The notes under the pieces were generated by a model. The model ran no database searches and was not told the origin of the DNA. It saw only the letters and a program-made list of their open reading frames with translations. Below are positions 30,130 through 42,620 of a stretch of 64,000 bases of DNA, piece by piece. Every line of letters begins with the position of its first letter. Position 1 is the stretch's first letter. Position numbers and translations under genes: made by a program. The stretch comes from Ruminococcus sp. GTDB taxonomy: Bacteria > Bacillota > Clostridia > Oscillospirales > Acutalibacteraceae. The stretch is from assembly GCA_017410265.1 (NCBI GenBank), contig JAFQRC010000010.1, positions 27,679 through 91,678 of the forward strand, read 5' to 3'.

Positions 30130-33100
30130 TTAGTTGTGATACTTTTCTCCACCCTTTGGTGTTAAGTAACCGACATTACCTGTTGAGTCAAGCGCGTTTA
30201 AGCCGAAGCTGTAGTTCTGATAGTTCTTAATATCAAGAGTAACAGTATTTGTTGTTGTGCTTGTAACTACAGTTTCTTTTCCGCTTTCATCGAAGTATGA
30301 AACCCATGTTTTTGTAGCACCTGTATCTTCCGGCCAAGTGAGAGTTACTGTGTCCTCATCAACAGGAGTGAAGGTGATGAAGTTTTCGTCTGAATACGGC
30401 ATTCTTGTGCCTGCACCGATGTAGTTAACGGTTACCTGTGAGCCTGTTTCCTCGTCATCATACAAAGCTACTACTGAGAAGAAGTAGTACTTGCCTGGTT
30501 CTCTCCACTTGATTGTGTAGGTTGTGTCTGTTGTCGATGACCATGTTGTCCAATTATCAAGATTTGATGTACTCTTTGTAGTTGTTGAGTAAATAACCCA
30601 GTACTTAACAGCATTTTCATATGCAGGCCAGCTGATTGTAGCTGTAGTCGAAGTTACATCTGTGATAACTGTTGTGATGATATCACCCGATGTTGTTGTT
30701 ACCTCGATATCAGGACAAGCATCTTTTTCACCCAATGCTAACAAGCCGTTTGAAAGTATCGCTGGTACAACCTTGAAGTAGTAAGTTGTTTCAGCCTGAA
30801 GATGCTTTACTGTGTAGTTAAGCTCTGTTGTTGAGTCATACACATAGAAAGGACCGTTTTCTTCAAACGCTTTATAAATCCAGTATTTCTGTGCGCCCTC
30901 AACTGCTTCCCATGTAAGCTCTGCTGATGTTGTTGACGGAGTAGCTTTGAGTGTATCTACTACTACAGGTTCTAGTGTTGTAAATTCTACTGCTGTAGCA
31001 TCAGATAATTTCATAGTTGAGCCATCACTTAGTGTAGCTATAACCTTCACCTGATATGTTGTACTACCTAAAAGACTGCCGACAGTTACCTTAGTGGCTG
31101 TAGTTGAAGTATAAACACCCCAGGAATTAGCACTTTCGTTATATTTATATACCCAGTATTTTGTAGCTCCGTCAACTGCATCCCAGGTGAGCACTGCGTT
31201 TGATGCAGCAGGCTCAGCTTTGATGTTTTCTACCTTAGTTGGAGCCACGGTTACTTCTTCGGTTGGAGCCTCTGTTTCTTCAACTGTCTTTGGCTGTACT
31301 GTGAGATAAGTGTAAGACCAGTCTGAGTTTCCGTCAGGGGTGAAGTAAACTGTGCAATCGCCTACTTTGTTTGAGGTTGCTCCGATTTTGTAGGTACTGC
31401 TCGAAAGGTCTTTGTACCAATTTGTGATATCATTGCCGTCAAAGTAAACGACCTTGAGTGCGTCGCCACCGTAGAATGTCCAGTCGAGGGTATAGATACC
31501 GTCATCGCCTAAAGTCAGCATTCTGTCAGACGAATTTTCATCAACAGTCCAGCAGTCTTCCCCGTTGAGTGTACCTACCATGTAGTAGCCTTTCTCAACT
31601 GAAACTGATGTTTCTTTTTCAGTTTCTTCTTCTGTAGGGTCTGTTACTTCCTCTGTCGGATCAGTTTCTGCCTCAGTCGGTTCTTCGGTTTCTTCTTCGG
31701 TTGGCTCTATTGTTTCTTCCTCTGTCGGGTCCTCATCAGGATTGTAGGAAGCTGTGATGTTGTGGTACAGATCACTGTATTCAAAGACAAGTGTAATCTG
31801 GTTTTCTGCGTATTCTACAGATTCTTCAGCCCAACAATCAGCAGATTCTGCGTTGTAGGTCTTGTATTCTGTTGCTTCAACAGGAATCTGAGCTTGATAA
31901 ATATAGAAGGTTTTTTCTTCGTTTGACCAGTAGTCTGAGCCTACTGCGTACTGAGCAGTTTCTCCTGTTGCTGTAAGTGTTGCGTCACCGAATACGCCTT
32001 CGTCATTCCAGTAGTGGAGAGTCGGAAGAAAATCTGTGATGTATTTAACAACACCCACATAAACAGTTTTTGTTTCGCCTGATACAGGAGCAGATGTAGC
32101 CGCTTGAGTCGGAGTTTCAGTCGGGACTTCTATCTCATCAGCGTTATAAACAACGGCGATACCGGTTGAGCCGATGTTGCCTGAAATTTTACCACCTGAA
32201 ACAGTAAAGGTGTTGCCTGAAATCTGGTCTGTGTATGTACCGCTTGCCATTTTGTTAGCGGTAACCGAAACAGAAGTTGAAGAACCGCCGACATTGACTA
32301 AAACAACGCCTGATGTTCCTCTCTCGACGTAGGCGATACTACCTGAGGATGCGAAATATTCACTCTGACCGACAAAGGCGTTCTTGAACTGGTTTATAGC
32401 TTTGACCTCTTTGTCTGCCCACGCTGTTGTGTCAGCGTTACCGAGCATTGTAGAGCCTGAACTTGGACGAGCAAGATACATGCCGCAGACTTCTGCACGC
32501 GAGCCGACAATAGCCCATGTTTTCTTTAAGTTAGTGTCGGATACATAGCTTGAACTACCCTCACAGTAAGTGTCGTGGGATTCGTTCCACTGAACTGTGT
32601 ATTTAGGCGCCGCGCCGTTGTAGATAGCAGAATTAGCCGCACCGCCTGCGTTTCCTGAATTCACGCAGTTACGAATGTCGTTACTTGAAGCGTTGCAGGT
32701 AACGCTCATATACTGTGTATATGCGGACATATCCACTCCGCCTGTGCTATCGAGCATTTCGCCATAGTAGTATGGTGTAAAGCCGTAGGTATCTTCAGCG
32801 TAAGCAGTAGCCGCATTCAAAACATTTGGCCAGAAATCACTGCCCGTGCCATAAGAATCAGATGGTGTTTCGATGTGCTTAGCGGCATCGAATCTAAAGC
32901 CGTCAGCACCGCAGTCGATACATTCTTTTAAGAAGCTTGTAGCGTAGTTCTGGATTTTGCTATAGCCTGTGTTTAAATCAGGAAGACCGCCTAAGCAGTA
33001 GTGAGTAACATCATAGCGGTTTGAATAGTTGCTGATGTTGGTTGTGGTAGAGTGCCAGCAAGAAGAGTCGTTTCTGATATCAGAAGTAATCTGAGATGAC

Positions 33101-33558
33101 ACAGTATTGTCCGCACTTTCATTAGCAAGGTGATTGAAAACAGCATCAACAATAACCTTGATGCCGTACTTTTCAGCTTCTTCGCACATAGCCTTGAACT
33201 CTGTTTTTGTACCAAGCGCACTGCGGGAGTTTGTCTCAATCGAGAAGCTTATCGGCTGGTAGTAAACCCAGAAAGAGTTAGTGCAGGTGCTCCAGCTTTC
33301 TTTAGTAGACTCTTTTGAAGCCTGAATAGGAGAAGTCTGGATAGCTGAAAATCCCTGCGCGGCGATTTTAGCCATATTGTTCTTTATATTGTTAAAGGAC
33401 CAGTTAAAGCACTGGAGAATCTGGCCGTTTTGAACATCTTCTGTAAGACCATAATTATTTGTAGCCGCCTGTGTTTCAACTGTAAAGAAGTCAGTAGTAA
33501 TAAAACAACTGAACATCATACACAACGCAAGCGCTAAACTTAATAACCTTTTCAACAT
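30130..33558 (-). CDS. Secreted alpha-amylase (GH13, subfamily 28-like) with two accessory modules and a 4xFN3 tail; no dockerin
   Basis: Signal peptide; catalytic triad GFRFDAAKH / YGEML / ESHD; module ~31742-32070; X25/SusE-like module ~31292-31593; FN3 tail ~30130-31243. Confidence 0.9.
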   Translation of the reverse strand: MLKRLLSLALALCMMFSCFITTDFFTVETQAATNNYGLTEDVQNGQILQCFNWSFNNIKNNMAKIAAQGFSAIQTSPIQASKESTKESWSTCTNSFWVYYQPISFSIETNSRSALGTKTEFKAMCEEAEKYGIKVIVDAVFNHLANESADNTVSSQITSDIRNDSSCWHSTTTNISNYSNRYDVTHYCLGGLPDLNTGYSKIQNYATSFLKECIDCGADGFRFDAAKHIETPSDSYGTGSDFWPNVLNAATAYAEDTYGFTPYYYGEMLDSTGGVDMSAYTQYMSVTCNASSNDIRNCVNSGNAGGAANSAIYNGAAPKYTVQWNESHDTYCEGSSSYVSDTNLKKTWAIVGSRAEVCGMYLARPSSGSTMLGNADTTAWADKEVKAINQFKNAFVGQSEYFASSGSIAYVERGTSGVVLVNVGGSSTSVSVTANKMASGTYTDQISGNTFTVSGGKISGNIGSTGIAVVYNADEIEVPTETPTQAATSAPVSGETKTVYVGVVKYITDFLPTLHYWNDEGVFGDATLTATGETAQYAVGSDYWSNEEKTFYIYQAQIPVEATEYKTYNAESADCWAEESVEYAENQITLVFEYSDLYHNITASYNPDEDPTEEETIEPTEEETEEPTEAETDPTEEVTDPTEEETEKETSVSVEKGYYMVGTLNGEDCWTVDENSSDRMLTLGDDGIYTLDWTFYGGDALKVVYFDGNDITNWYKDLSSSTYKIGATSNKVGDCTVYFTPDGNSDWSYTYLTVQPKTVEETEAPTEEVTVAPTKVENIKAEPAASNAVLTWDAVDGATKYWVYKYNESANSWGVYTSTTATKVTVGSLLGSTTYQVKVIATLSDGSTMKLSDATAVEFTTLEPVVVDTLKATPSTTSAELTWEAVEGAQKYWIYKAFEENGPFYVYDSTTELNYTVKHLQAETTYYFKVVPAILSNGLLALGEKDACPDIEVTTTSGDIITTVITDVTSTTATISWPAYENAVKYWVIYSTTTKSTSNLDNWTTWSSTTDTTYTIKWREPGKYYFFSVVALYDDEETGSQVTVNYIGAGTRMPYSDENFITFTPVDEDTVTLTWPEDTGATKTWVSYFDESGKETVVTSTTTNTVTLDIKNYQNYSFGLNALDSTGNVGYLTPKGGEKYHN

Positions 33559-33636
33559 AACCTTGTCCTCTCTTTCGTGGTTTGAGAATCATTTTATTTT
33601 GCTATTATATTTTACTATAAAAGATATTGAAATCTC

Positions 33637-33660
33637 AACGGCTATAAGCACTAAACTTTT
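33637..33660. promoter_or_regulatory. 24-bp conserved site upstream of amylase 1
   Basis: AACGGCTATAAGCACTAAACTTTT, 23/24 identical to 36299-36322, abutting the -35 element. Confidence 0.7.
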
Positions 33661-33707
33661 TCTTCAGCTATTGTACAAAACGCTTAGTGATTCTAAAAGG
33701 AATGTGA

Positions 33708-33736
33708 AAAGCGGGAGCAAAAACTGCCCCCGCTTT
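33708..33736 (-). terminator. Intrinsic terminator of amylase 2
   Basis: AAAGCGGGAGC-AAAAACT-GCCCCCGCTTT; same family as 46387-46415 and 50823-50851. Confidence 0.75.
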
Positions 33737-33864
33737 GAGTCATTGATGTTCAATTTGTAAATTCACGGTTCTCATTTTTAGACTTTTCGACCAAGAATTT
33801 CTTCGAAAAAGATAAGAAATCGCCATAAACTTTCCAAATCTTGTCATATTTTATGATTAGAGTG

Positions 33865-36219
33865 CTATCCGTTATAAACACTCCAATTGCCGTTGTCAAA
33901 AATTTTGCCGAAGCCCTGGAGTGAAATGTCAGCAGACTGCGCACCCTGGTTGTTGTTATTGAATACAACCATTGTTGCGTCCTGAGGAATCTGAGCTCTG
34001 TAAACATTGTTGCCGACAGGCTCCATATGAACACCCGGCCATGAGCTCTCAGAAGAGCCGCCCCAGTAGTGGACCTTGACCTCTCCCCAGTTGTCGTTGT
34101 TCTTGTAGTAGATGTATGTACCGTCAACCACAGGAATATCAACCGGCGACTGTGTCGGAGCGACCGTAGGCTGTGTTACATTACCATAATCGCTCCAGTT
34201 GCCGTCGGTGTAAATCTTGTTTACACCTTGAAGAGTGATATTTGAAGTCTGTGAACTGCCGTTATTAAAAATTACATACTGAGCGGAAGAAGGAATTTCT
34301 GCTGCGTAAACGTTGTCGCCAAAAGAAGTCATATCTTTGCCCGGCCAAGAAACCATATTGGTATCTGAATCTGACCAGTAGTAAATCTTGACAGTAGACC
34401 AACCCTGAGTGTTATTGTAGTAGATATAGTTGCCAACAGGAAGTGCAGGCTGAGTAGGAGCAACGGTCGGGTCGACAACGCTCTCACTCTCAACATATTT
34501 TCCGCAGTATGAGCCCTCTTTGCTCAAACCTGCCACATACTGCTGAATCAGAGTAGCGTCTACAACATTGACTTCACCGTTTAAATCTGCGTCAGCATAG
34601 CGCTGCTGTTTTTCTGTGAAAGCAGTTGACTTTGAAACAAATCTCTGCACAAATGTTGCGTCTGTAACAGAAACATTGTCGTCTGAGTTAACATCGCCGA
34701 CGAGGTATTTCTCCACAGGCTGTGTAGGTGGATTTGTAGGAGCAGCTGTCGGAGCCTGAGTCGGAGGAGTTGTCGGCTGAGGTGTTGAGTTCTGGTTATA
34801 CACAACTGCAACACCTGATGAGCCGATGTTACCAGAAATTCTGCCATTAGAAACAGTGAAGGAATTTCCTGTTACATAGTCTTTATATGTACCATTTGCC
34901 ATATTAGGAACATTAATATTGACAGATGTTGAGGTGCCGTGTGCGTTAACAAGAACAACACCACAGTTTCCTCTGACATTATAAGCGATTGAACCGTCAG
35001 CTCCTAAGTACTCGCTCTGTCCGTCAAAGTAGTTTTTGAACTTGTTGACTTCAGCGACCGGCTTTGACTTATAAGTAGTGTTTGAACTTGCGTCGCCCAT
35101 ATTGTAAGCAGGACGGGCAAAGAACAGTGAAGAAGCTTCTGCACGGGAGCCTATCATAGCCCAGGCTTTGATGATTTTGTCATCTGAAACGCCTGAAGTA
35201 TTACCCATACCGCCTGAACCGGATTCGCCCATATATGTATCGTGGGATTCAACCCAGAGCACATTTTTGTTAGCAGCTGCGCCCTTAGCGTAGTTTGAAT
35301 TTGCCATACCTGAAACATTGCTGTTGCAGGTTGCCATGAGAATAGCGTCACTTGTGAAGTTATCCGTGATGCTCATATATCTTGTATAGTTAGAAATATC
35401 TGTACCACAGCCGTTTAATATCTCGCCGTAGAAATAGATTTCATTAGGTGAAGCGTTCTGCGCACCGTTTAAAACATTCGGCCAGAAATCACTTCTGTTG
35501 CCGTCGTCTGTTGGTAACTCGATGTGTTTAGCAGCGTCAAAACGGAATCCGTCAACACCGATATTTACACACTCAACAAGGAAGTTCTTTACGATATTCT
35601 GAACATCAGGGTGACCTGTGTTAAGGTCTGGCATACCGATGTGACCCATTGTCATCGCGTAACGGCTACCGTCGTTAGCACCATCGTTATAGTCGTGGTA
35701 ATATTCCCATCTTTTGAGTGAGCCGTCTACATTGCCGTCAAGTGAGCCGTATCCTCCACCACCGTTACCTGAAAGGTGGTTTGCAACAACGTCAACGATA
35801 ACCTTGATGCCCATAGACTCAGCTGTGGAGCAAAGTGACTGGAGGTCTGACTTACTACCAAGCCAGGTGTGGTTTGAAATAGAAAAGTTAAGTGGCTGAT
35901 AAAGCTTCCACCACTGGTTTTTCTGGTCACGCCATGAACCGTTGTAGTCCTTTGGCTGCTGAACAGGAGATGTCTGTACAGCTGTGTAGCCTGCGTCCTT
36001 GATAGCCTGCAGGTTATTCTTGATGTTATTGTAAGACCAGTTGAAGCAGTGTAAAATAGCACTACCCTGAATACTGCTCTGTGGCGCAGTGCTTGCAGAA
36101 AGAGTAGCACTGTCAACAACTGATGCCTGTGTATCAACTGCTGTGAAATCAACAGCAATCACACAAGACAGCGTAATACAAAGTGCGAGCACGATGCTCA
36201 GAAATTTTTTCATCATCAA
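33865..36219 (-). CDS. Secreted alpha-amylase (GH13, subfamily 28-like) with internal dockerin and two C-terminal CBM26-like modules
   Basis: GFRFDAAKH / YGEIL / ESHD; dockerin GDVNSDDNVSVTDATFVQR...ADLNGEVNVVDATLIQQ (~34528-34704); two YIYYxNxxxWxxVKxxYW...WPGxxM...IFNNG modules. Confidence 0.92.
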   Translation of the reverse strand: MMMKKFLSIVLALCITLSCVIAVDFTAVDTQASVVDSATLSASTAPQSSIQGSAILHCFNWSYNNIKNNLQAIKDAGYTAVQTSPVQQPKDYNGSWRDQKNQWWKLYQPLNFSISNHTWLGSKSDLQSLCSTAESMGIKVIVDVVANHLSGNGGGGYGSLDGNVDGSLKRWEYYHDYNDGANDGSRYAMTMGHIGMPDLNTGHPDVQNIVKNFLVECVNIGVDGFRFDAAKHIELPTDDGNRSDFWPNVLNGAQNASPNEIYFYGEILNGCGTDISNYTRYMSITDNFTSDAILMATCNSNVSGMANSNYAKGAAANKNVLWVESHDTYMGESGSGGMGNTSGVSDDKIIKAWAMIGSRAEASSLFFARPAYNMGDASSNTTYKSKPVAEVNKFKNYFDGQSEYLGADGSIAYNVRGNCGVVLVNAHGTSTSVNINVPNMANGTYKDYVTGNSFTVSNGRISGNIGSSGVAVVYNQNSTPQPTTPPTQAPTAAPTNPPTQPVEKYLVGDVNSDDNVSVTDATFVQRFVSKSTAFTEKQQRYADADLNGEVNVVDATLIQQYVAGLSKEGSYCGKYVESESVVDPTVAPTQPALPVGNYIYYNNTQGWSTVKIYYWSDSDTNMVSWPGKDMTSFGDNVYAAEIPSSAQYVIFNNGSSQTSNITLQGVNKIYTDGNWSDYGNVTQPTVAPTQSPVDIPVVDGTYIYYKNNDNWGEVKVHYWGGSSESSWPGVHMEPVGNNVYRAQIPQDATMVVFNNNNQGAQSADISLQGFGKIFDNGNWSVYNG

Positions 36220-36298
36220 TCTCTCCTAAAGTTGAATAAGGTGAAAACCAATATTTTTCATTATGCTACTATTCTACAACACCGCCACCTCAAAAAAC

Positions 36299-36322
36299 AA
36301 CGGATATAAGCACTAAACTTTT
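36299..36322. promoter_or_regulatory. 24-bp conserved site upstream of amylase 2
   Basis: AACGGATATAAGCACTAAACTTTT abutting TTGTTT-18-TAGAAT. Confidence 0.7.
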
Positions 36323-36589
36323 CAAAAGTATCTTAGTCAAAACCACCAACAAACAGGAGAGATGTTTGAATAAAATCACAACACCATCTTTAAGACACGA
36401 AGTTTTTGTCGGCATATTGTACTAAGAAGTGACCTCTGTTTTGTATAACTCTCACGACGGTTTTTTTACATTGATATTCCCAAAATTTATCCTCGGGTTT
36501 TAAAAACTGTGCGATAAAAGACAAAAAACCTCCCCTTTTTCAGGGGAGGCTGATGTTAAAAATCGAGTATTTATGCGGGTTTGCTATGA

Positions 36590-36731
36590 GCCTTGACTCT
36601 TAGCTGTCAAGCTTCGCTCACCCACGCTGCTCCTCAAAACAACTCCTACCAAAGTCCCGCCCGTCGGACATAAATTGTCCTTTGGTCGGCTCAGCTTTTT
36701 TTGTTATCTCGAGGGCTACGGCGCTCAGCTC
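36590..36731. repeat. Dispersed repeat element directly after the scaffoldin stop codon
   Basis: AACTCCTAC...CCCGCCCGTCGGACA...TGTCCT.TGGTCGG...GTTATCTCGAGGGCT shared with 30030-30129. Confidence 0.75.
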
Positions 36732-38543
36732 TTAGTTATGATACTTTTCGCCACCTGCAGGTGTTAAGTATCCGACATTACCTGTTGAGTCAAGTGCGTT
36801 TAAGCCAAAGCTGTAGTTTTCGTAATTTGCGATATCGAGTGTAACTGTATTTGTTGTTGTGCTCTTTAAGATAGTTTCTTTACCGTTTTCATCATAGTAT
36901 GAAGCCCATACTTTTGTTGCACCTGTGTCTTCTGGCCAAGTAAGTGTTACTGTGTCTTCATCTACTGGAGTGAAAGTGATAAAGTTGCTGTCTGAATAAG
37001 GTATTCTTGCGCCGTCAGCTAAGTATTTGACTGTTGCCTGTTGGCCTGTTTCAGCGTCATTGTACAGAGCTACTACTGAGAAGAAATAGTACTTGCCTGG
37101 TTCTCTCCACTTAAATGTGTAAGTTGTATCAGTTGTTTCTGCCCATGTTGTCCAATTATCAAGATTTGTTGTGCTCATTGTAGTTGTTGAGAAAATTACC
37201 CAGTACTTCACAACATTCTCAAACTTCGGCCAGCTGATGGTTGCTGTTGTTGATGTGAGGCTAGTGATTTCTACTGTGATGCTTTCGCCGGTTGCTGTAG
37301 TAGCTTCCAATTTCTGAGCTGCGTCAGCTTCGCCGAGTGATAACAAGCCGTTTGATAAAATAGCAGGGATAACCTTGAAGTAGTAGGTTGTATCCGGCTG
37401 AAGATGTTTTACTGTGTAGTTAAGTTCTGTAGTTGCATCGTATACATAGAAAGGACCATTTTCTTCAAAAGCTTTGTAAATCCAGTACTTCTGCGCGCCT
37501 TCTACTGCATTCCATGAAAGCTTAACTGATGTTACATCGGGTGTAGCCATAAGACCGTCAACCACAACAGGAGCTTTAGTTGTAAATTCTACAACATCTG
37601 CGTCAGAAAGCTTCTGCATTGTACCGTCGGAGAAAGCAGCTATAACCTTAATCTGATATGTTGTATCGCCTACCAAAGTGCCGACTGTAGCTTTGTTAGT
37701 AGTTGAAGAAGTATATGCTACATAATTTCCGTCTTTTTCCTTGTAAATCCAGTATTTTGTTGCACCCTCTACGGCGTCCCAAGTAAGAACAGCTGTTGAT
37801 GATGCAGGATCTACAACGATATTTTCAACCTTAGTTGGTTTAGCAGGAGCGTCAGTTGGTGCTTCTGTTGGTTCCTCTGTAGGTTCCTCTGTTGGCTCCT
37901 CTGTTGGTTCCTCTGTTGGCTCCTCTGTTGGCTCCTCTGTAGGTTCCTCTGTTGGTTTATCTGTTGGTATTTCAGTAGGCTCTTCTGATGCTTCGTATGT
38001 AACATACTCAGCGTAGGTAAAGTCCTTCACAAAAACAGAACCTTCAGGAGTCTTGTCGATGTAATAATCACGGTTTTCACCGCCGAGCTCAATAACTTCT
38101 GTAGCGATGGTGCTCTCACCAGCAGCTAAAACTGTGAATTCAAATATAGCAACAGCCTCTTCGCCGCTGAAGGTGTATGGATTGTTTCTAGTGAAGTTGT
38201 AGAGAATCTCATCCTCTAAATCAAGGTTAACAACAGCAGTACCGCTAACCTTAGGGAAAGTTTCCTCTAAAAATGCATCATAAGCATCTTCGTCATCTTC
38301 GCTGACTTTAGTTACTGCGAGATAATCGCTGTCATAGGTAACCGAAGCCTCCATACACATGGATTTCATATCAGTCAGAGCATAGGTGTAGGTGAAGGTT
38401 TCGCCCACAGGGATGTCAGTTGTAACCCCGTTTACAGTGAGGGAAAGTACATCTGCATCTTCAGCAGAAACAGAAAAACCGAGTCCCATAAAAGCTGACA
38501 TTGTAATGATAAGTGCTAACAGGATAGAAAGTAATTTTTTCAT
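36732..38543 (-). CDS. Putative scaffoldin: signal peptide, one cohesin-like domain, PTEE linker, 4xFN3 tail
   Basis: LTVNGVTTDIPVGETFTYTYAL...ASVTYDSDYL...YNFT...YTFSGEEAVAIFEFTVLAAGESTI resembles Ruminococcus cohesins; start moved to ATG 38543 (GGAGG RBS; TTGACT-17-TATTAT at 38575-38603). Confidence 0.7.
   Translation of the reverse strand: MKKLLSILLALIITMSAFMGLGFSVSAEDADVLSLTVNGVTTDIPVGETFTYTYALTDMKSMCMEASVTYDSDYLAVTKVSEDDEDAYDAFLEETFPKVSGTAVVNLDLEDEILYNFTRNNPYTFSGEEAVAIFEFTVLAAGESTIATEVIELGGENRDYYIDKTPEGSVFVKDFTYAEYVTYEASEEPTEIPTDKPTEEPTEEPTEEPTEEPTEEPTEEPTEEPTEAPTDAPAKPTKVENIVVDPASSTAVLTWDAVEGATKYWIYKEKDGNYVAYTSSTTNKATVGTLVGDTTYQIKVIAAFSDGTMQKLSDADVVEFTTKAPVVVDGLMATPDVTSVKLSWNAVEGAQKYWIYKAFEENGPFYVYDATTELNYTVKHLQPDTTYYFKVIPAILSNGLLSLGEADAAQKLEATTATGESITVEITSLTSTTATISWPKFENVVKYWVIFSTTTMSTTNLDNWTTWAETTDTTYTFKWREPGKYYFFSVVALYNDAETGQQATVKYLADGARIPYSDSNFITFTPVDEDTVTLTWPEDTGATKVWASYYDENGKETILKSTTTNTVTLDIANYENYSFGLNALDSTGNVGYLTPAGGEKYHN
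37853..37985 (-). repeat. Coding 12-bp tandem repeats (PTEE linker)
   Basis: GG(T/C)TCCTCTGT(T/A) units encoding EEPTEEPTEEPT. Confidence 0.9.
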
Positions 38544-38719
38544 AATTAATCCTCCAATATATTTATACATTATTATAATAGCATTGAGCATTTTCAAAGT
38601 CAACAAAATAGCCTTTTGAGAGTGTAGAAAAATTGCTTTGTTTTTTGACAAATCCTACAAAAACACGCAAAAATCCCCCACTCATAGAGCAGGGGATAAG
38701 CATAATATATATTGGTTGA

Positions 38720-41074
38720 TTACTTAACCATCCACAGTTCCTTAGCATACTGAAGGATTGTTCTGTCAGAGCTAAACTGTGAGCAGTGAGCAATATTCTG
38801 TAGACACTTTGTACCAAAGAGCATCTTGTCCTTGTAGTCCTTGTTAACCTGAAGCTTAGCTTCAACATACATCGGGAGATCGTAGAACAGGAAGTAGTGG
38901 TCAGCGATGTGCCAGTGTGTGCCGTTTACAAGACCGTTGTGGAGTTCAGCGAAGCTACCCTCACCCTGAGCACCATCGTCATCGAATGTGCCGTCAATAA
39001 GAGTGTCAACAACTCTCTTAAGCATTGGGTTAGTCATGTAGATAGCCTTTGGATCGTAACCGTTACGCTTGAGGTTTTCGATATCCTCAACTCTGCCGCC
39101 GAAGATGTACTCGTTCTCTTCGCCTGCAGCCTGAGTAATCTCAACATTAGCACCGTCGTAAGTACCGAGTGTTACAGCACCGTTGAACATGAACTTCATG
39201 TTACCTGTACCTGAAGCCTCTGTACCTGCTGTAGAAATCTGCTCTGAAACATCAGCAGCAACAACGATTTTCTCAGCGTAAGAAACATTGTAGTTAGAAA
39301 CGAAGATAACCTGGAGCTTGTCCTTTGTATCAGGGTCGTTGTTAACGAGCTCAGCGATTTCGTTGATGTACTTGATGATAGCCTTAGCTCTACGGTAACC
39401 AGGAGCAGCCTTAGCACCGAAGATGAAGCATGTCGGCTCAAAATCAGGCAACTTGCCGTCTTTAATCATAAAGTAAATCCACATGATAGAGAAAGCATTT
39501 AAGAGCTGACGCTTGTACTCGTGCAGACGCTTAACCTGTACATCGAAGATGAACTTAGGATTGATGTCCTTGCCTTCCATCTTCTTGACATAAGCAGCAA
39601 GCTGCTTTTTCTTTGTAGCTTTAATCTTACTGAATGCCTTTACAGCGTCCTTATCAATACACTGTGCGAGCTTATCAACCTTAGCCATATCTCTCTGCCA
39701 GCCGTCGCCAACTCTCTGTGTGATAAACTCAGAAAGCTCAGGGTTACAAAGGCCGAGCCATCTACGCTGAGTGATACCGTTTGTCTTGTTCTGGAAACGC
39801 TCAGGGTAAATCTTGTACCAGTCGTTAAGAACATCGTTCTTAAGAATCTCAGTGTGAATCCAAGCAACGCCGTTTACATATGAAGAGCCGTAGATAGCAA
39901 GTCTAGCCATATGAACTCTTTCGTCAGAAAGAATACACATATTACGAATAACATCGTCAGACATACCTCTGCCCTTGAAGTCGTTCCAAAGGCGCTCGTT
40001 AATAAGCTCGATGATGTGGTAAACCTCAGGAATAACATTTCTCATGAGGTAGATATCCCACTTCTCAAGAGCCTCAGCCATAACTGTGTGGTTAGTGTAA
40101 GCAAAAGTCTTCTGAGCAATCTGGAATGCTTCTTCAAATGAGATACCCTCTAAACCTAAAAGTCTGATAAGCTCAGGGATAGAGCAAACAGGGTGAGTAT
40201 CGTTGAGCTGAATAGCAGCGTGCTCACTAAAGTGTGAGAAGTCGTTGCCGTACTTAGCCTTGTATCTCTTGATGATATCCTGAAGTGAAGCTGAGCAGAA
40301 GAAGTACTGCTGCTTGAGTCTAAGCACCTTACCTTCGTAAGTGTTGTCGTTAGGATAAAGAACCTTAGAGATGTTCTCAGCGTCATTCTTAGATTTAACT
40401 GACTGGTCGTACTGACCGTTGTTGAACGCGATGAAGTCAAACTCTTCAACAGGCTCAGCCTGCCAGAGTCTAAGTGTGTTGATGTTCTTTGTGCCGTAGC
40501 CGATAATAGCCATATCGTAAGGCACAGCTACTACTGATGAGTCAGCGTACTTAACTGTAACTGCCTCGTCGAGTCTTCTAACGCACCATGGGTCCTCAAA
40601 CTTCTGCCAGTTGTCAGCAACCTCAACCTGATAGCCGTCTTCAATGAGCTGTTTGAAAAGACCGTACTTGTAACGGATTCCGTAGCCATCAAGTGGAACT
40701 TCCTGTGTAGCAGCTGAGTCAAGGAAGCAAGCAGCAAGACGACCAAGACCGCCGTTACCAAGCGCCATATCCTCAACATCTTCGAAAGCATTGATGTCCA
40801 TACCCTTGCTCTTGAGTAAAGCCTTAACATCGTCAAGCATACCTAAGCAGTAGAGGTTGTTGTACACCATTCTACCCATAAGGAATTCAGCAGAGAAGTA
40901 GTAAGCTCTTCTGTTTGAGCTGTGCTTTTTCTTACTCTTCTGCCAGTTGTCAGCGATTTCGCCCATGATAGCCTTACCAAGTACAAAGTGAAGCTGCTCC
41001 AAAGTTAACTCTTTAGGCTTTTTGCAGTACTCGCTCTGTGAAATAGTGGTAAGCTGTTCCATTGTAATACCCAT
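38720..41074 (-). CDS. glgP: Glycogen/starch/maltodextrin phosphorylase (GT35)
   Basis: LGNGGLGRLAACFLDS, QLNDTHP, AYTNHT, QVKRLHEYKRQ and PLP-lysine motif EASGTGNMK. Confidence 0.96.
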   Translation of the reverse strand: MGITMEQLTTISQSEYCKKPKELTLEQLHFVLGKAIMGEIADNWQKSKKKHSSNRRAYYFSAEFLMGRMVYNNLYCLGMLDDVKALLKSKGMDINAFEDVEDMALGNGGLGRLAACFLDSAATQEVPLDGYGIRYKYGLFKQLIEDGYQVEVADNWQKFEDPWCVRRLDEAVTVKYADSSVVAVPYDMAIIGYGTKNINTLRLWQAEPVEEFDFIAFNNGQYDQSVKSKNDAENISKVLYPNDNTYEGKVLRLKQQYFFCSASLQDIIKRYKAKYGNDFSHFSEHAAIQLNDTHPVCSIPELIRLLGLEGISFEEAFQIAQKTFAYTNHTVMAEALEKWDIYLMRNVIPEVYHIIELINERLWNDFKGRGMSDDVIRNMCILSDERVHMARLAIYGSSYVNGVAWIHTEILKNDVLNDWYKIYPERFQNKTNGITQRRWLGLCNPELSEFITQRVGDGWQRDMAKVDKLAQCIDKDAVKAFSKIKATKKKQLAAYVKKMEGKDINPKFIFDVQVKRLHEYKRQLLNAFSIMWIYFMIKDGKLPDFEPTCFIFGAKAAPGYRRAKAIIKYINEIAELVNNDPDTKDKLQVIFVSNYNVSYAEKIVVAADVSEQISTAGTEASGTGNMKFMFNGAVTLGTYDGANVEITQAAGEENEYIFGGRVEDIENLKRNGYDPKAIYMTNPMLKRVVDTLIDGTFDDDGAQGEGSFAELHNGLVNGTHWHIADHYFLFYDLPMYVEAKLQVNKDYKDKMLFGTKCLQNIAHCSQFSSDRTILQYAKELWMVK

Positions 41075-41075
41075 T

Positions 41076-42569
41076 TTAGTTCTCCTCCAGTCGTGAGTGT
41101 GTTTTAGCTAAATTATATAGTCTGTCTGATACTTCTTTAGTAAGCATCGTAGGATCTAATCTCCATGTCCAGTTTCCGCCTAAAGTTGACGGAATGTTGA
41201 TTCGAGCTTCTGAACCTAAGCCCAGAACATCCTGCATCTGAACGATACAGTAGTTAGCGATACTACTGTAGCAGGTTTCGATGAGTTTCCAGCAGAAATC
41301 GTCGCCGTCGTAGATATTGCAGTACTGCTTAGCAAAGTCGATTTCAGCCTGTGGAGCAGTCGAAAGCCAGCCGTTTACAGTATCGTTGTCGTGAGTTCCT
41401 GTGTATACAACACAGTTTTCTGTGTATCTGTGAGGTAAGAAGTCGTTGTCCCAACCATCGCCAAAGCCGAATGTGAGGACCTTCATGCCCGGATAACCTG
41501 AATCATTAAGAAGCTTAGTAACGCTGTCGAAAAGCTCGCCTAAGTCTTCCGCAACAATCGGAACATCTCCGAGTGCTTCTTTCATTTTATTGAAGAAGTC
41601 CATACCAGGGCCGATTTTCCACTCACCGCCGATAGCATTTTCAGCAGGATAAGGGATAGCGTAATATGTGTCGAAAGCTCTGAAATGGTCGATTCTTGTG
41701 ATGTCGAAAAGCTTGGATGCAGCTTCAACACGCTTAATCCACCACTCATAGCCTGTGCTCTTTAGGTATTCCCAGTCGTACAGCGGGTTACCCCAGAGCT
41801 GACCTGTTTCAGAGAAATAATCAGGAGGACATCCCGCTACACAAACAGGCTCTCTGTTTTCATCAAGCCAGAAAACCTCAGGGTTAGCCCAGGTGTCAGC
41901 GCTGTCGAGCGCAACATAGATAGGCATATCGCCTAAAATCTCGATGCCAAGTGAGTTTACATAAGCTCTGAAATCCTCCCACTGGGTGTAGAATTCAAAC
42001 TGAACCCACTTCCAGAAGTCAATTTCGTCTTTATATTTACGCTCGTACTTTTTGACAGCTGCTTCTTCTCTTAACTTGATAGCTTCGTCAGGCCACTGTG
42101 TCCAAGCCTGCATGTCAAAGCCTTTCTTGACAGCCATGTAAAGAGCGTAGTCCTTAATCCAAGCGGCATTCTTGCGCTTGAAGGAATTGAACGCTTTTTG
42201 CTCTTCGTTTTCTTTGAAATTCTTGTACGCAATATGCAGTACCTCAAAACGGCTGTTGTAGATTTTCTCGTAATCGATGTAACCGTTGTCACTGCCCCAG
42301 TCGTACTTTGAAATATCCGACTTCTTCAGAAGCTTTTGCTCAACAAGTGTATCCAGGTCAATCATATAAGGGTTACCTGCGTAGGTAGAGAAAGACTGGT
42401 ACGGTGAATCACCGTAGCTGGTCGGACCTACAGGCAGGATCTGCCAGATCTTCTGACCTGAAGCTTTCAGAAAGTCGGCGAATTTTCTTGCTTCTTTTCC
42501 GATAGTACCAATTCCGTAAGGTGAACTAAGGGAAGTAATTGGCATGAGTATTCCGGCAACTCTGGCCAT
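41076..42569 (-). CDS. malQ: 4-alpha-glucanotransferase (amylomaltase, GH77)
   Basis: WQILPVGPT..GDSPYQS, GDMPIYV, GQLWGNPLYDW, RIDHFR, AEDLG and YTGTHDN motifs; start moved to ATG 42569. Confidence 0.96.
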   Translation of the reverse strand: MARVAGILMPITSLSSPYGIGTIGKEARKFADFLKASGQKIWQILPVGPTSYGDSPYQSFSTYAGNPYMIDLDTLVEQKLLKKSDISKYDWGSDNGYIDYEKIYNSRFEVLHIAYKNFKENEEQKAFNSFKRKNAAWIKDYALYMAVKKGFDMQAWTQWPDEAIKLREEAAVKKYERKYKDEIDFWKWVQFEFYTQWEDFRAYVNSLGIEILGDMPIYVALDSADTWANPEVFWLDENREPVCVAGCPPDYFSETGQLWGNPLYDWEYLKSTGYEWWIKRVEAASKLFDITRIDHFRAFDTYYAIPYPAENAIGGEWKIGPGMDFFNKMKEALGDVPIVAEDLGELFDSVTKLLNDSGYPGMKVLTFGFGDGWDNDFLPHRYTENCVVYTGTHDNDTVNGWLSTAPQAEIDFAKQYCNIYDGDDFCWKLIETCYSSIANYCIVQMQDVLGLGSEARINIPSTLGGNWTWRLDPTMLTKEVSDRLYNLAKTHSRLEEN

Positions 42570-42620
42570 AAAATCAACTCCTGTCATTTTTATTTTAAAA
42601 AAATTTTAAAAAGTTACAGA

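Follow-up and report, generated by a model that had tools for sequence, protein, structure and literature searches.

We analysed a 64,000-nucleotide stretch of the genome of a Ruminococcus sp., an uncultured starch degrader of the gut (assembly GCA_017410265.1, contig JAFQRC010000010.1), referred to below as the window, in which three separately spaced minus-strand genes at 30130-38651 encode a single-cohesin scaffoldin (Sca), a dockerin-bearing GH13 amylase (AmyDoc) and a second GH13 amylase without a dockerin (AmyA). Sca and AmyA end in closely similar arrays of four fibronectin type III (FN3) domains, referred to here as the tail, and this tail is probably a new targeting module. The three genes lie in a starch-use neighbourhood that reads, in minus-strand order, malQ, glgP (phosphorylase), sca, amyDoc, amyA and then rimP-nusA-infB (Table 1).

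Sca starts at the ATG at 38543 (MKKLL...) and consists of a signal peptide, an N-terminal domain of ~165 aa, a PTEE-repeat linker whose length differs among orthologues, and the tail. All four conserved GH13 regions are readable in the AmyA translation. AmyDoc carries its dockerin at residues 508-562 (Pfam Dockerin_1, E 9.7e-11), as had been claimed for this amylase, together with CBM26 (a carbohydrate-binding module, CBM; E 3.6e-32), and is a candidate ligand of the Sca cohesin. The promoter-like site upstream of sca and the terminator-like hairpins flanking it, found by consensus scan only, suggest that sca may be transcribed alone, and so it looks monocistronic.

Table 1. Features of the sca-amyA region and related features of the genome and of other loci
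Feature	Position	Strand	Basis or remark
malQ (GH77)	41076-42587		starch-use neighbourhood of sca
glgP, glycogen/maltodextrin phosphorylase	38720-41074		upstream of sca
Terminator-like hairpin after glgP	38673-38697		consensus scan only
Promoter-like site upstream of sca (TTGACT-17-TATTAT with TG)	38575..38603	-	consensus scan only
sca, secreted single-cohesin scaffoldin, 603 aa	36732..38543	-	ORF, translation, orthologues, conserved position
Predicted cohesin module of Sca	37974..38465	-	AF2, Foldseek, Pfam score of orthologue P0016
Pro/Thr/Glu-rich linker of Sca (PTEE repeats)	37839..37973	-	Pfam PT repeat, E 6e-13
Sca tail, four FN3 domains	36735..37838	-	BLASTP, Pfam, AF2, Foldseek
FN3-1 of Sca tail	37563-37838	-	
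FN3-2 of Sca tail	37293-37562	-	
FN3-3 of Sca tail	37005-37292	-	
FN3-4 of Sca tail	36735-37004	-	
Terminator-like hairpin after sca	36527..36551	-	consensus scan only
amyDoc, GH13 amylase with dockerin (34534-34698) and two CBM26	33865..36219	-	Pfam, genome dockerin scan
amyA, secreted GH13 alpha-amylase, 1142 aa, without dockerin	30130..33558	-	Pfam Alpha-amylase and fn3
GH13 domain of AmyA	~32134-33468	-	
Two uncharacterised modules of AmyA, followed by the tail	~31249-32118	-	
AmyA tail, four FN3 domains	30133..31242	-	76% identity to Sca tail, 90% to AmyB tail
Cohesin protein, 994 aa: CBM26-like modules, three cohesins; ends ...GIKTGT, hydrophobic helix, RKRKFD	C2:246667-250932		
Cohesin protein, 309 aa, transmembrane helix	C2:246667-250932		adjoins 994-aa gene
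Cohesin protein, 232 aa, transmembrane helix	C1:1068-1766		
Cohesin protein, 832 aa: cohesin, three CBM26-like modules, dockerin			
Second-type tail in another locus	L069 6382-7848		
Second-type tail in another locus	L070 4533-9368		

BLASTP comparison of AmyA (P0001, 1142 aa) with Sca (P0003) produced a single alignment of 370 columns with 280 identities (76%, E = 0.0), spanning residues 773-1142 of AmyA and 272-639 of P0003; no similarity was detected between the two proteins outside the tail. The tail is 368 aa long in Sca and 370 aa in AmyA, and both copies end in ...GNVGYLTPxGGEKYHN. Pfam fn3 (PF00041) matched both tails at 34-43 bits against a cut-off of 25. The AlphaFold2 (AF2) model (pLDDT 90.5, pTM 0.64) shows four seven-stranded sandwiches in tandem, and in the Protein Data Bank (PDB) it is matched best by LAR and fibronectin fragments with four FN3 domains (6tpw, 3t1w, 1fnf). 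The array is thus of a generic FN3 kind, and its fold is not unusual. The original prediction, made from the sequence of the window, had noticed the two arrays and proposed a genome-wide search for others. That search, over the whole 1.97-Mb assembly, detected a third full copy on another contig, at the end of a second amylase, AmyB (G000:C4:272633-276844, 1403 aa), which is composed of GH13, CBM26, further modules and the tail. The AmyB tail is 90% identical to that of AmyA and 76% identical to that of Sca.

A module of ~115 aa directly precedes the tail linker in AmyA (window 31249-31610, residues ~649-768; GYY[ML]VGTLNGxDCW...YF[RT]P[DE]GNSxWSYxYFTV) and recurs in AmyB, in C2:212221-215172, in C2:256277-257677 and in several starch-related proteins. 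It has no Pfam match and is probably an undescribed starch-binding module.

Sca and AmyA were said to lack conventional anchors, and this holds for both proteins and for AmyB. No dockerin was found in Sca or AmyA (Pfam, E <= 0.1, and the genome dockerin scan) or in AmyB (Pfam scan), and the S-layer homology (SLH) domain (PF00395) had no match in Sca or AmyA at E <= 0.1 or in AmyB at E <= 0.01. LPXTG-like motifs and C-terminal hydrophobic stretches are absent from all three proteins; tail proteins end in ...GGEKYHN or ...GGEKYHTD. Among 44 tail-bearing proteins none has a dockerin-type calcium loop (by a pattern that recovered 4/5 positive controls), a transmembrane stretch, an LPXTG motif or a C-terminal hydrophobic stretch. 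Covalent attachment with the C-terminal Lys as a substrate of an L,D-transpeptidase was considered and dropped because this residue is not conserved.

The genome has other means of anchoring. Four more cohesin proteins (Table 1) were detected by a Pfam scan and by jackhmmer started from the Sca cohesin; the 994-aa protein and both short single-cohesin proteins have a hydrophobic helix at the C-terminus and are likely the cell anchors of this amylosome. Six sortase genes are present in the same genome. Since anchored scaffoldins and sortases are encoded, the amylosome can be anchored without the tail, and we rejected the tail as the sole amylosome anchor. Of the proposed 'sortase-independent amylosome anchor', the absence of a sortase signal on the carriers stands, and the claim to be the amylosome anchor is overstated because conventional anchors are present; a role of the tail as a possible tether is not weakened by this. 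The premise that R. bromii scaffoldins either use sortase signals or are amylase-cohesin fusions is likewise correct in part: Sca2 and Sca5 are sortase-anchored, but the premise omits Sca3 and Sca4, which have no anchors and are presumed to be cell-free (PMC5814915, PMC12663171). About 75 dockerin-bearing frames were counted in the 1.97-Mb genome, six of them inside the window, including two CotH proteins; 26-27 have been reported for R. bromii L2-63.

The N-terminal domain of Sca is, by its predicted structure, a genuine cohesin. The AF2 model (pLDDT 93.4, pTM 0.88, from an alignment of 20 relatives) has the nine-stranded beta-sandwich cohesin fold, and in the Foldseek search that compared it with known structures ranks 1-46 were all cohesin or cohesin-like modules, the best being the R. 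bromii Sca5 cohesins 7urp and 7uvg (E 2e-7, TM-score 0.65). Pfam Cohesin (PF00963) had no match on Sca's own sequence at E <= 0.1, a plain sequence search of the PDB with Sca found nothing, and a profile search of the PDB returned generic FN3 proteins only, matched through the tail. The orthologue P0016, 48% identical to Sca, scored 28.9 bits with the Pfam model (cut-off 24.1). The cohesin assignment, which agrees with the original prediction, thus comes from structure prediction and orthologues, because the Pfam and PDB sequence searches miss the Sca N-terminus.

Full-length Sca orthologues number ~18 (43-96% identity). Among the 201 genomes of the genus, 15 encode a Sca-type cohesin (39-60% identical), and these make up essentially the tail-bearing subclade. 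The orthologous cohesin protein P0028 has a dockerin at its end in place of the tail. In the Sca orthologue of G463 (L072 3188-4975) the cohesin is followed by one FN3 domain and then by Cys-rich repeats of ~37 aa (...APDCENTGLTEGKHCSVC...), not by the four-FN3 tail.

The gene order around sca is conserved. Wherever a locus shows both genes, sca comes after glgP (at least 11 genomes), and rsmE, cinA and malQ lie upstream wherever the contig extends that far. In seven loci rimP-nusA(-infB) lies downstream of sca, often with intervening amylase or ABC-transporter-like genes, and an amyDoc orthologue adjoins sca and/or amyA/amyB in six genomes (G317, G322, G327, G423, G460 and G485). In the genome that encodes the Sca orthologue P0022 a gene of more than 2100 codons lies directly after sca (L077 9919-16242).

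The tail itself is restricted to a small subclade of the genus. Sampling of 301 genomes across the family gave two with the tail, both from the window's own genus (1 of 185 genera); within this genus 12 of 201 genomes have it and the remaining 189 do not. A search of 1.84 billion representative proteins with FN3-3 and FN3-4 gave ~14 strong matches (E <= 1e-21), every one with the tail at the extreme C-terminus; weaker matches were generic FN3 arrays. In this protein set the tail is confined to ~15 clusters. The named relatives are uncultured 'Ruminococcus sp.', Oscillospiraceae and Eubacteriales metagenome-assembled genomes (MAGs), of which two come from the rectum of roe deer and one from the colon of dairy cattle.

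Four classes of cargo bear the tail: single-cohesin proteins, GH13 amylases of the AmyA and AmyB types, non-catalytic starch-binding proteins with CBM26 and related modules (P0130, P0131), and BspA-type leucine-rich repeat (LRR) proteins (P0029, P0132), the last with FN3-2 to FN3-4 only and without FN3-1. These cargo classes carry dockerins in R. bromii (PMC4611034, PMC12663171). The tail is the last module of signal-peptide proteins and follows a flexible linker; therefore it is not a spacer between two domains. That the array is exchangeable among proteins, as had been suggested, is well supported by the four cargo classes, by its never occurring with a dockerin and by the likeness of its copies within genomes.

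The evolution of the tail differs from that of the domains to which it is joined. In the maximum-likelihood tree of 19 tails, the tails group by genome irrespective of cargo: Sca with AmyA in G317 (support 100/100), Sca with AmyB in G320 (99/98), AmyA with Sca in G322 (100/99) and AmyA with AmyB in G423 (100/100). A clade of all Sca tails was rejected, at a cost of 494 log-likelihood units (approximately unbiased (AU) test, p = 6e-85). In the control tree, the GH13 domains taken from these amylases separate into two orthologous clades, AmyA and AmyB, each supported at 100/100; the AmyA/AmyB duplication is therefore older than the species. Between species the tails are 36-47% identical where the GH13 domains are 74-91% identical; AmyA of G322, for instance, shares 91% identity with AmyA of the window in GH13 and 41% in the tail (36% to the Sca tail). 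As the genomes compared are MAGs, some within-genome pairs may stem from mixed bins.

Synonymous sites gave the same picture. For AmyA and AmyB of this genome the synonymous divergence (dS) is 0.54 in the tails, 2.3 in the module just upstream and saturated in GH13, and identical codons at identical residues are used at 0.62-0.74 in the tails, against 0.44 by chance and 0.36-0.57 in the GH13 domains. The contrast of tails with GH13 in trees, dS and codon use indicates that, as judged from the sequences, the tail has repeatedly been made uniform across unlinked genes, either by gene conversion or by transfer of the block. The ratio of non-synonymous to synonymous divergence (dN/dS) is 0.12-0.19 (0.17-0.19 for the Sca tail against the amylase tails), showing purifying selection on all four modules. 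No single module was supported as the business end, the four being equally conserved (45-47% between genomes), although FN3-1 is missing from the LRR carriers. Tails that stay alike within genomes while the catalytic domains track orthology are the strongest lead of the analysis.

We tentatively suggest, at rather less than an even chance, that the tail is a lineage-specific, interchangeable address module that replaces the dockerin and would direct its carriers to a shared, species-specific envelope partner. On some of the secreted proteins of amylosome type it would stand in for the dockerin, and all carriers within one cell would be directed to the same partner, most likely a cell-envelope component (wall glycopolymer or surface protein) contacted non-covalently. 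Sca would then be an extra, one-socket anchoring scaffoldin that retains dockerin proteins, for example the adjacent amylase, on the cell surface, and the dockerin-less AmyA and AmyB would be brought beside Sca through the same tail. We favour an address module over a spacer or a starch binder because the tail is terminal, excludes dockerins, sits on cargo of the dockerin class, changes fast between species, stays alike within a genome and is under purifying selection. Four readings were compared, and the envelope partner ranks first, tail-tail assembly and a passive stalk share the next place, and starch binding comes last.

Several observations weigh against an envelope partner. The fold is a generic FN3 array without a recognisable wall-binding motif, and the four modules are all acidic (pI 4.1-4.9, ~-20 net charge), whereas typical wall-binding modules are basic; electrostatic wall binding is not supported for this reason. 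The genome already encodes three scaffoldins with C-terminal hydrophobic anchors, so that an extra anchor is not needed, and the sortase genes point the same way, as do the presumed cell-free R. bromii scaffoldins Sca3 and Sca4. The Sca and amylase tails of MAGs G338 and G382 share no more than 39-47% identity; the G338-type Sca tail resembles the tails of LRR proteins from other samples, with up to 87% identity (P0132 and P0022). Several tail types may coexist in one genome, and gene conversion between similar repeats could homogenise the tails without selection.

Part of this evidence suits self-assembly, in which tails of the same type would bind each other and join Sca, AmyA and AmyB in parallel to the cohesin-dockerin contacts, with no requirement for attachment to the cell. 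Homogenisation of tails within a genome across different cargo is what selection by a homotypic interface is expected to produce, the several tail types per genome, each on few proteins, resemble separate assembly groups, the 87% identity joins an LRR tail to a Sca tail, and the pTM of the model suggests a fairly ordered rod. We consider such assembly unlikely: the only protein with the second tail type in this genome, described below, has no partner of its own type, and the likeness of the tails is explicable by gene conversion alone.

The same conversion, if neutral, also fits a tail with no specific partner at all. Sca would be a cell-free scaffoldin like Sca3 and Sca4, which is the chief rival interpretation of this protein, and the FN3 domains a passive stalk that extends its carrier, keeps it soluble or protects it from proteases. 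In bacterial scaffoldins and glycoside hydrolases, FN3 repeats are mostly regarded as spacers or as solubilising elements (PMC11557425). The fold, too, is generic, recent conversion is visible at synonymous sites, and anchored scaffoldins are encoded elsewhere in the genome. However, a spacer has nothing to separate when it stands at a protein's free end. Purifying selection acts on all four modules, and the motif TPxxGxxY at the end of the tail is conserved. A passive stalk also does not lead one to expect carriers strictly free of dockerins or a cargo set like that of dockerins. We regard this reading as no less improbable than self-assembly.

Tandem C-terminal repeats of ~90 aa on amylases are classically starch-binding domains, and the tail could be a non-canonical array that binds starch or loosens the granule, with Sca as a scaffoldin that targets the substrate, comparable to R. 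bromii Sca3 and its four X25 modules. The tail modules are aromatic-rich (9-16 aromatic residues per ~92 aa) and acidic, like many CBMs. Sca3, a cohesin joined to four starch-binding modules, is a precedent (PMC4611034), and a passage in PMC11557425 has the FN3 modules of C. thermocellum CbhA altering the cellulose surface. CBM26 (PF16738) did not match the tails, although the same model matches AmyDoc, AmyB and the CBM-only carriers; Pfam gave no match of the tail to any other CBM either, and no CBM was among the listed top 50 structural matches of the tail model. The tail is unlikely to be needed for starch binding because AmyB and the CBM-only carriers already hold CBM26, and LRR proteins bear it too. 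A protein made of CBMs and the tail only is best understood as a bridge from starch to something else. Starch is invariant, yet the tail diverges fast between species and stays alike within genomes. Starch binding is therefore the least probable of the four readings, an outside chance in our estimate. The 'cell-wall or substrate tether' of the original prediction, which spans this reading and the envelope partner, is so far a reasonable hypothesis.

The observation is wider than the original prediction recorded, with a third carrier in this genome, further cargo classes elsewhere and a second tail type. The second type has three FN3 domains (~265 aa) and ends in ...SMLYYYTTDLTV. In this genome it is found on a CBM26 starch-binding protein (C2:212221-215172), and elsewhere on the Sca of G423, on the Sca orthologue P0027 and on the AmyB of G460 (for other loci see Table 1); second-type tails are 36-42% identical among one another. 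Given this second type, the subclade seems to exchange FN3 tails among scaffoldins, amylases and starch-binding proteins as a general habit. In the secreted protein C16:34953-36476 a YkuD-type L,D-transpeptidase motif comes after three or four FN3-like modules, and in other metagenomes related FN3 arrays are fused to YkuD or caspase-like peptidases (P0043, P0073).

A broader reading, which we hold plausible while giving it somewhat less than even odds, is that FN3 tails form a second, dockerin-independent assembly code with at least two types, each a species-specific plug for a socket that may be a wall polymer, a surface protein or another tail. Type A would comprise four FN3 domains ending in TPxGGxxYH and type B three ending in ...YYYxT..V, both co-evolving within genomes as dockerins do, and the tail type would determine the set of scaffoldins, enzymes, LRR proteins and starch-binding proteins that is kept together.

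The closest documented analogue of the tail is R. albus CBM37, which replaces dockerins on orthologous enzymes (PMC4081043). Like the tail, CBM37 is C-terminal, found on many enzymes whose sister-species orthologues bear dockerins, rarely beside a dockerin and lineage-restricted, and for CBM37 itself, attachment of enzymes to cell-wall carbohydrate has been demonstrated (PMC4081043). Unlike the tail, which is a fixed four-FN3 array on three proteins per genome, it is one module of ~100 aa with 50-100 copies per genome. A tblastn search of a plasmid collection with the tail found only Paenibacillus and Embleya FN3 proteins and no match on R. albus plasmids, which is a weak test of the CBM37 link. 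Type I dockerins are comparable in that they too are C-terminal, can be exchanged between cargo and show greater likeness within a species than between orthologous enzymes, but they are calcium-binding EF-hand pairs, whereas the tail consists of FN3 sandwiches and is six times larger.

The system resembles the R. bromii amylosome in being starch-directed and based on cohesin and dockerin, with the Sca cohesin model closest to the Sca5 structures and a dockerin-bearing GH13 amylase with CBM26 adjoining sca. It differs in the one tail common to the scaffoldin and the dockerin-less amylases; FN3 or fibronectin is not mentioned in the R. bromii amylosome papers PMC4611034, PMC5814915 and PMC12663171. 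FN3-rich accessory scaffoldins of Ruminiclostridium and Clostridium, and the X1/FN3 modules of CbhA, also combine cohesins with FN3 repeats, for which loosening of polysaccharide surfaces or solubility of the complex has been proposed (PMC11557425); there the FN3 domains lie before a terminal cohesin-dockerin unit or between domains, and no block is shared with free enzymes.

A further parallel may be the X2/hydrophilic domains of C. cellulovorans CbpA, said to have been described by Kosugi et al. in 2004 (J Bacteriol), which are reportedly Ig-like beta-sandwiches that bind the cell surface without SLH or sortase. These are said to differ from the tail in belonging to another family, in being interspersed among cohesins and in not being shared with enzymes.

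Breakdown of resistant starch by R. bromii-type bacteria depends on the co-localisation of enzymes and their attachment to the cell, and to our knowledge only cohesin-dockerin pairs and sortase signals have so far been known to hold such starch enzymes together and on the cell. If the address-module reading is true, a second targeting module would explain the localisation of dockerin-less amylases of the Amy1/Amy2 type, would bear on the destination of 'free' scaffoldins, and would add a part to the tool-kit for designer enzyme complexes.

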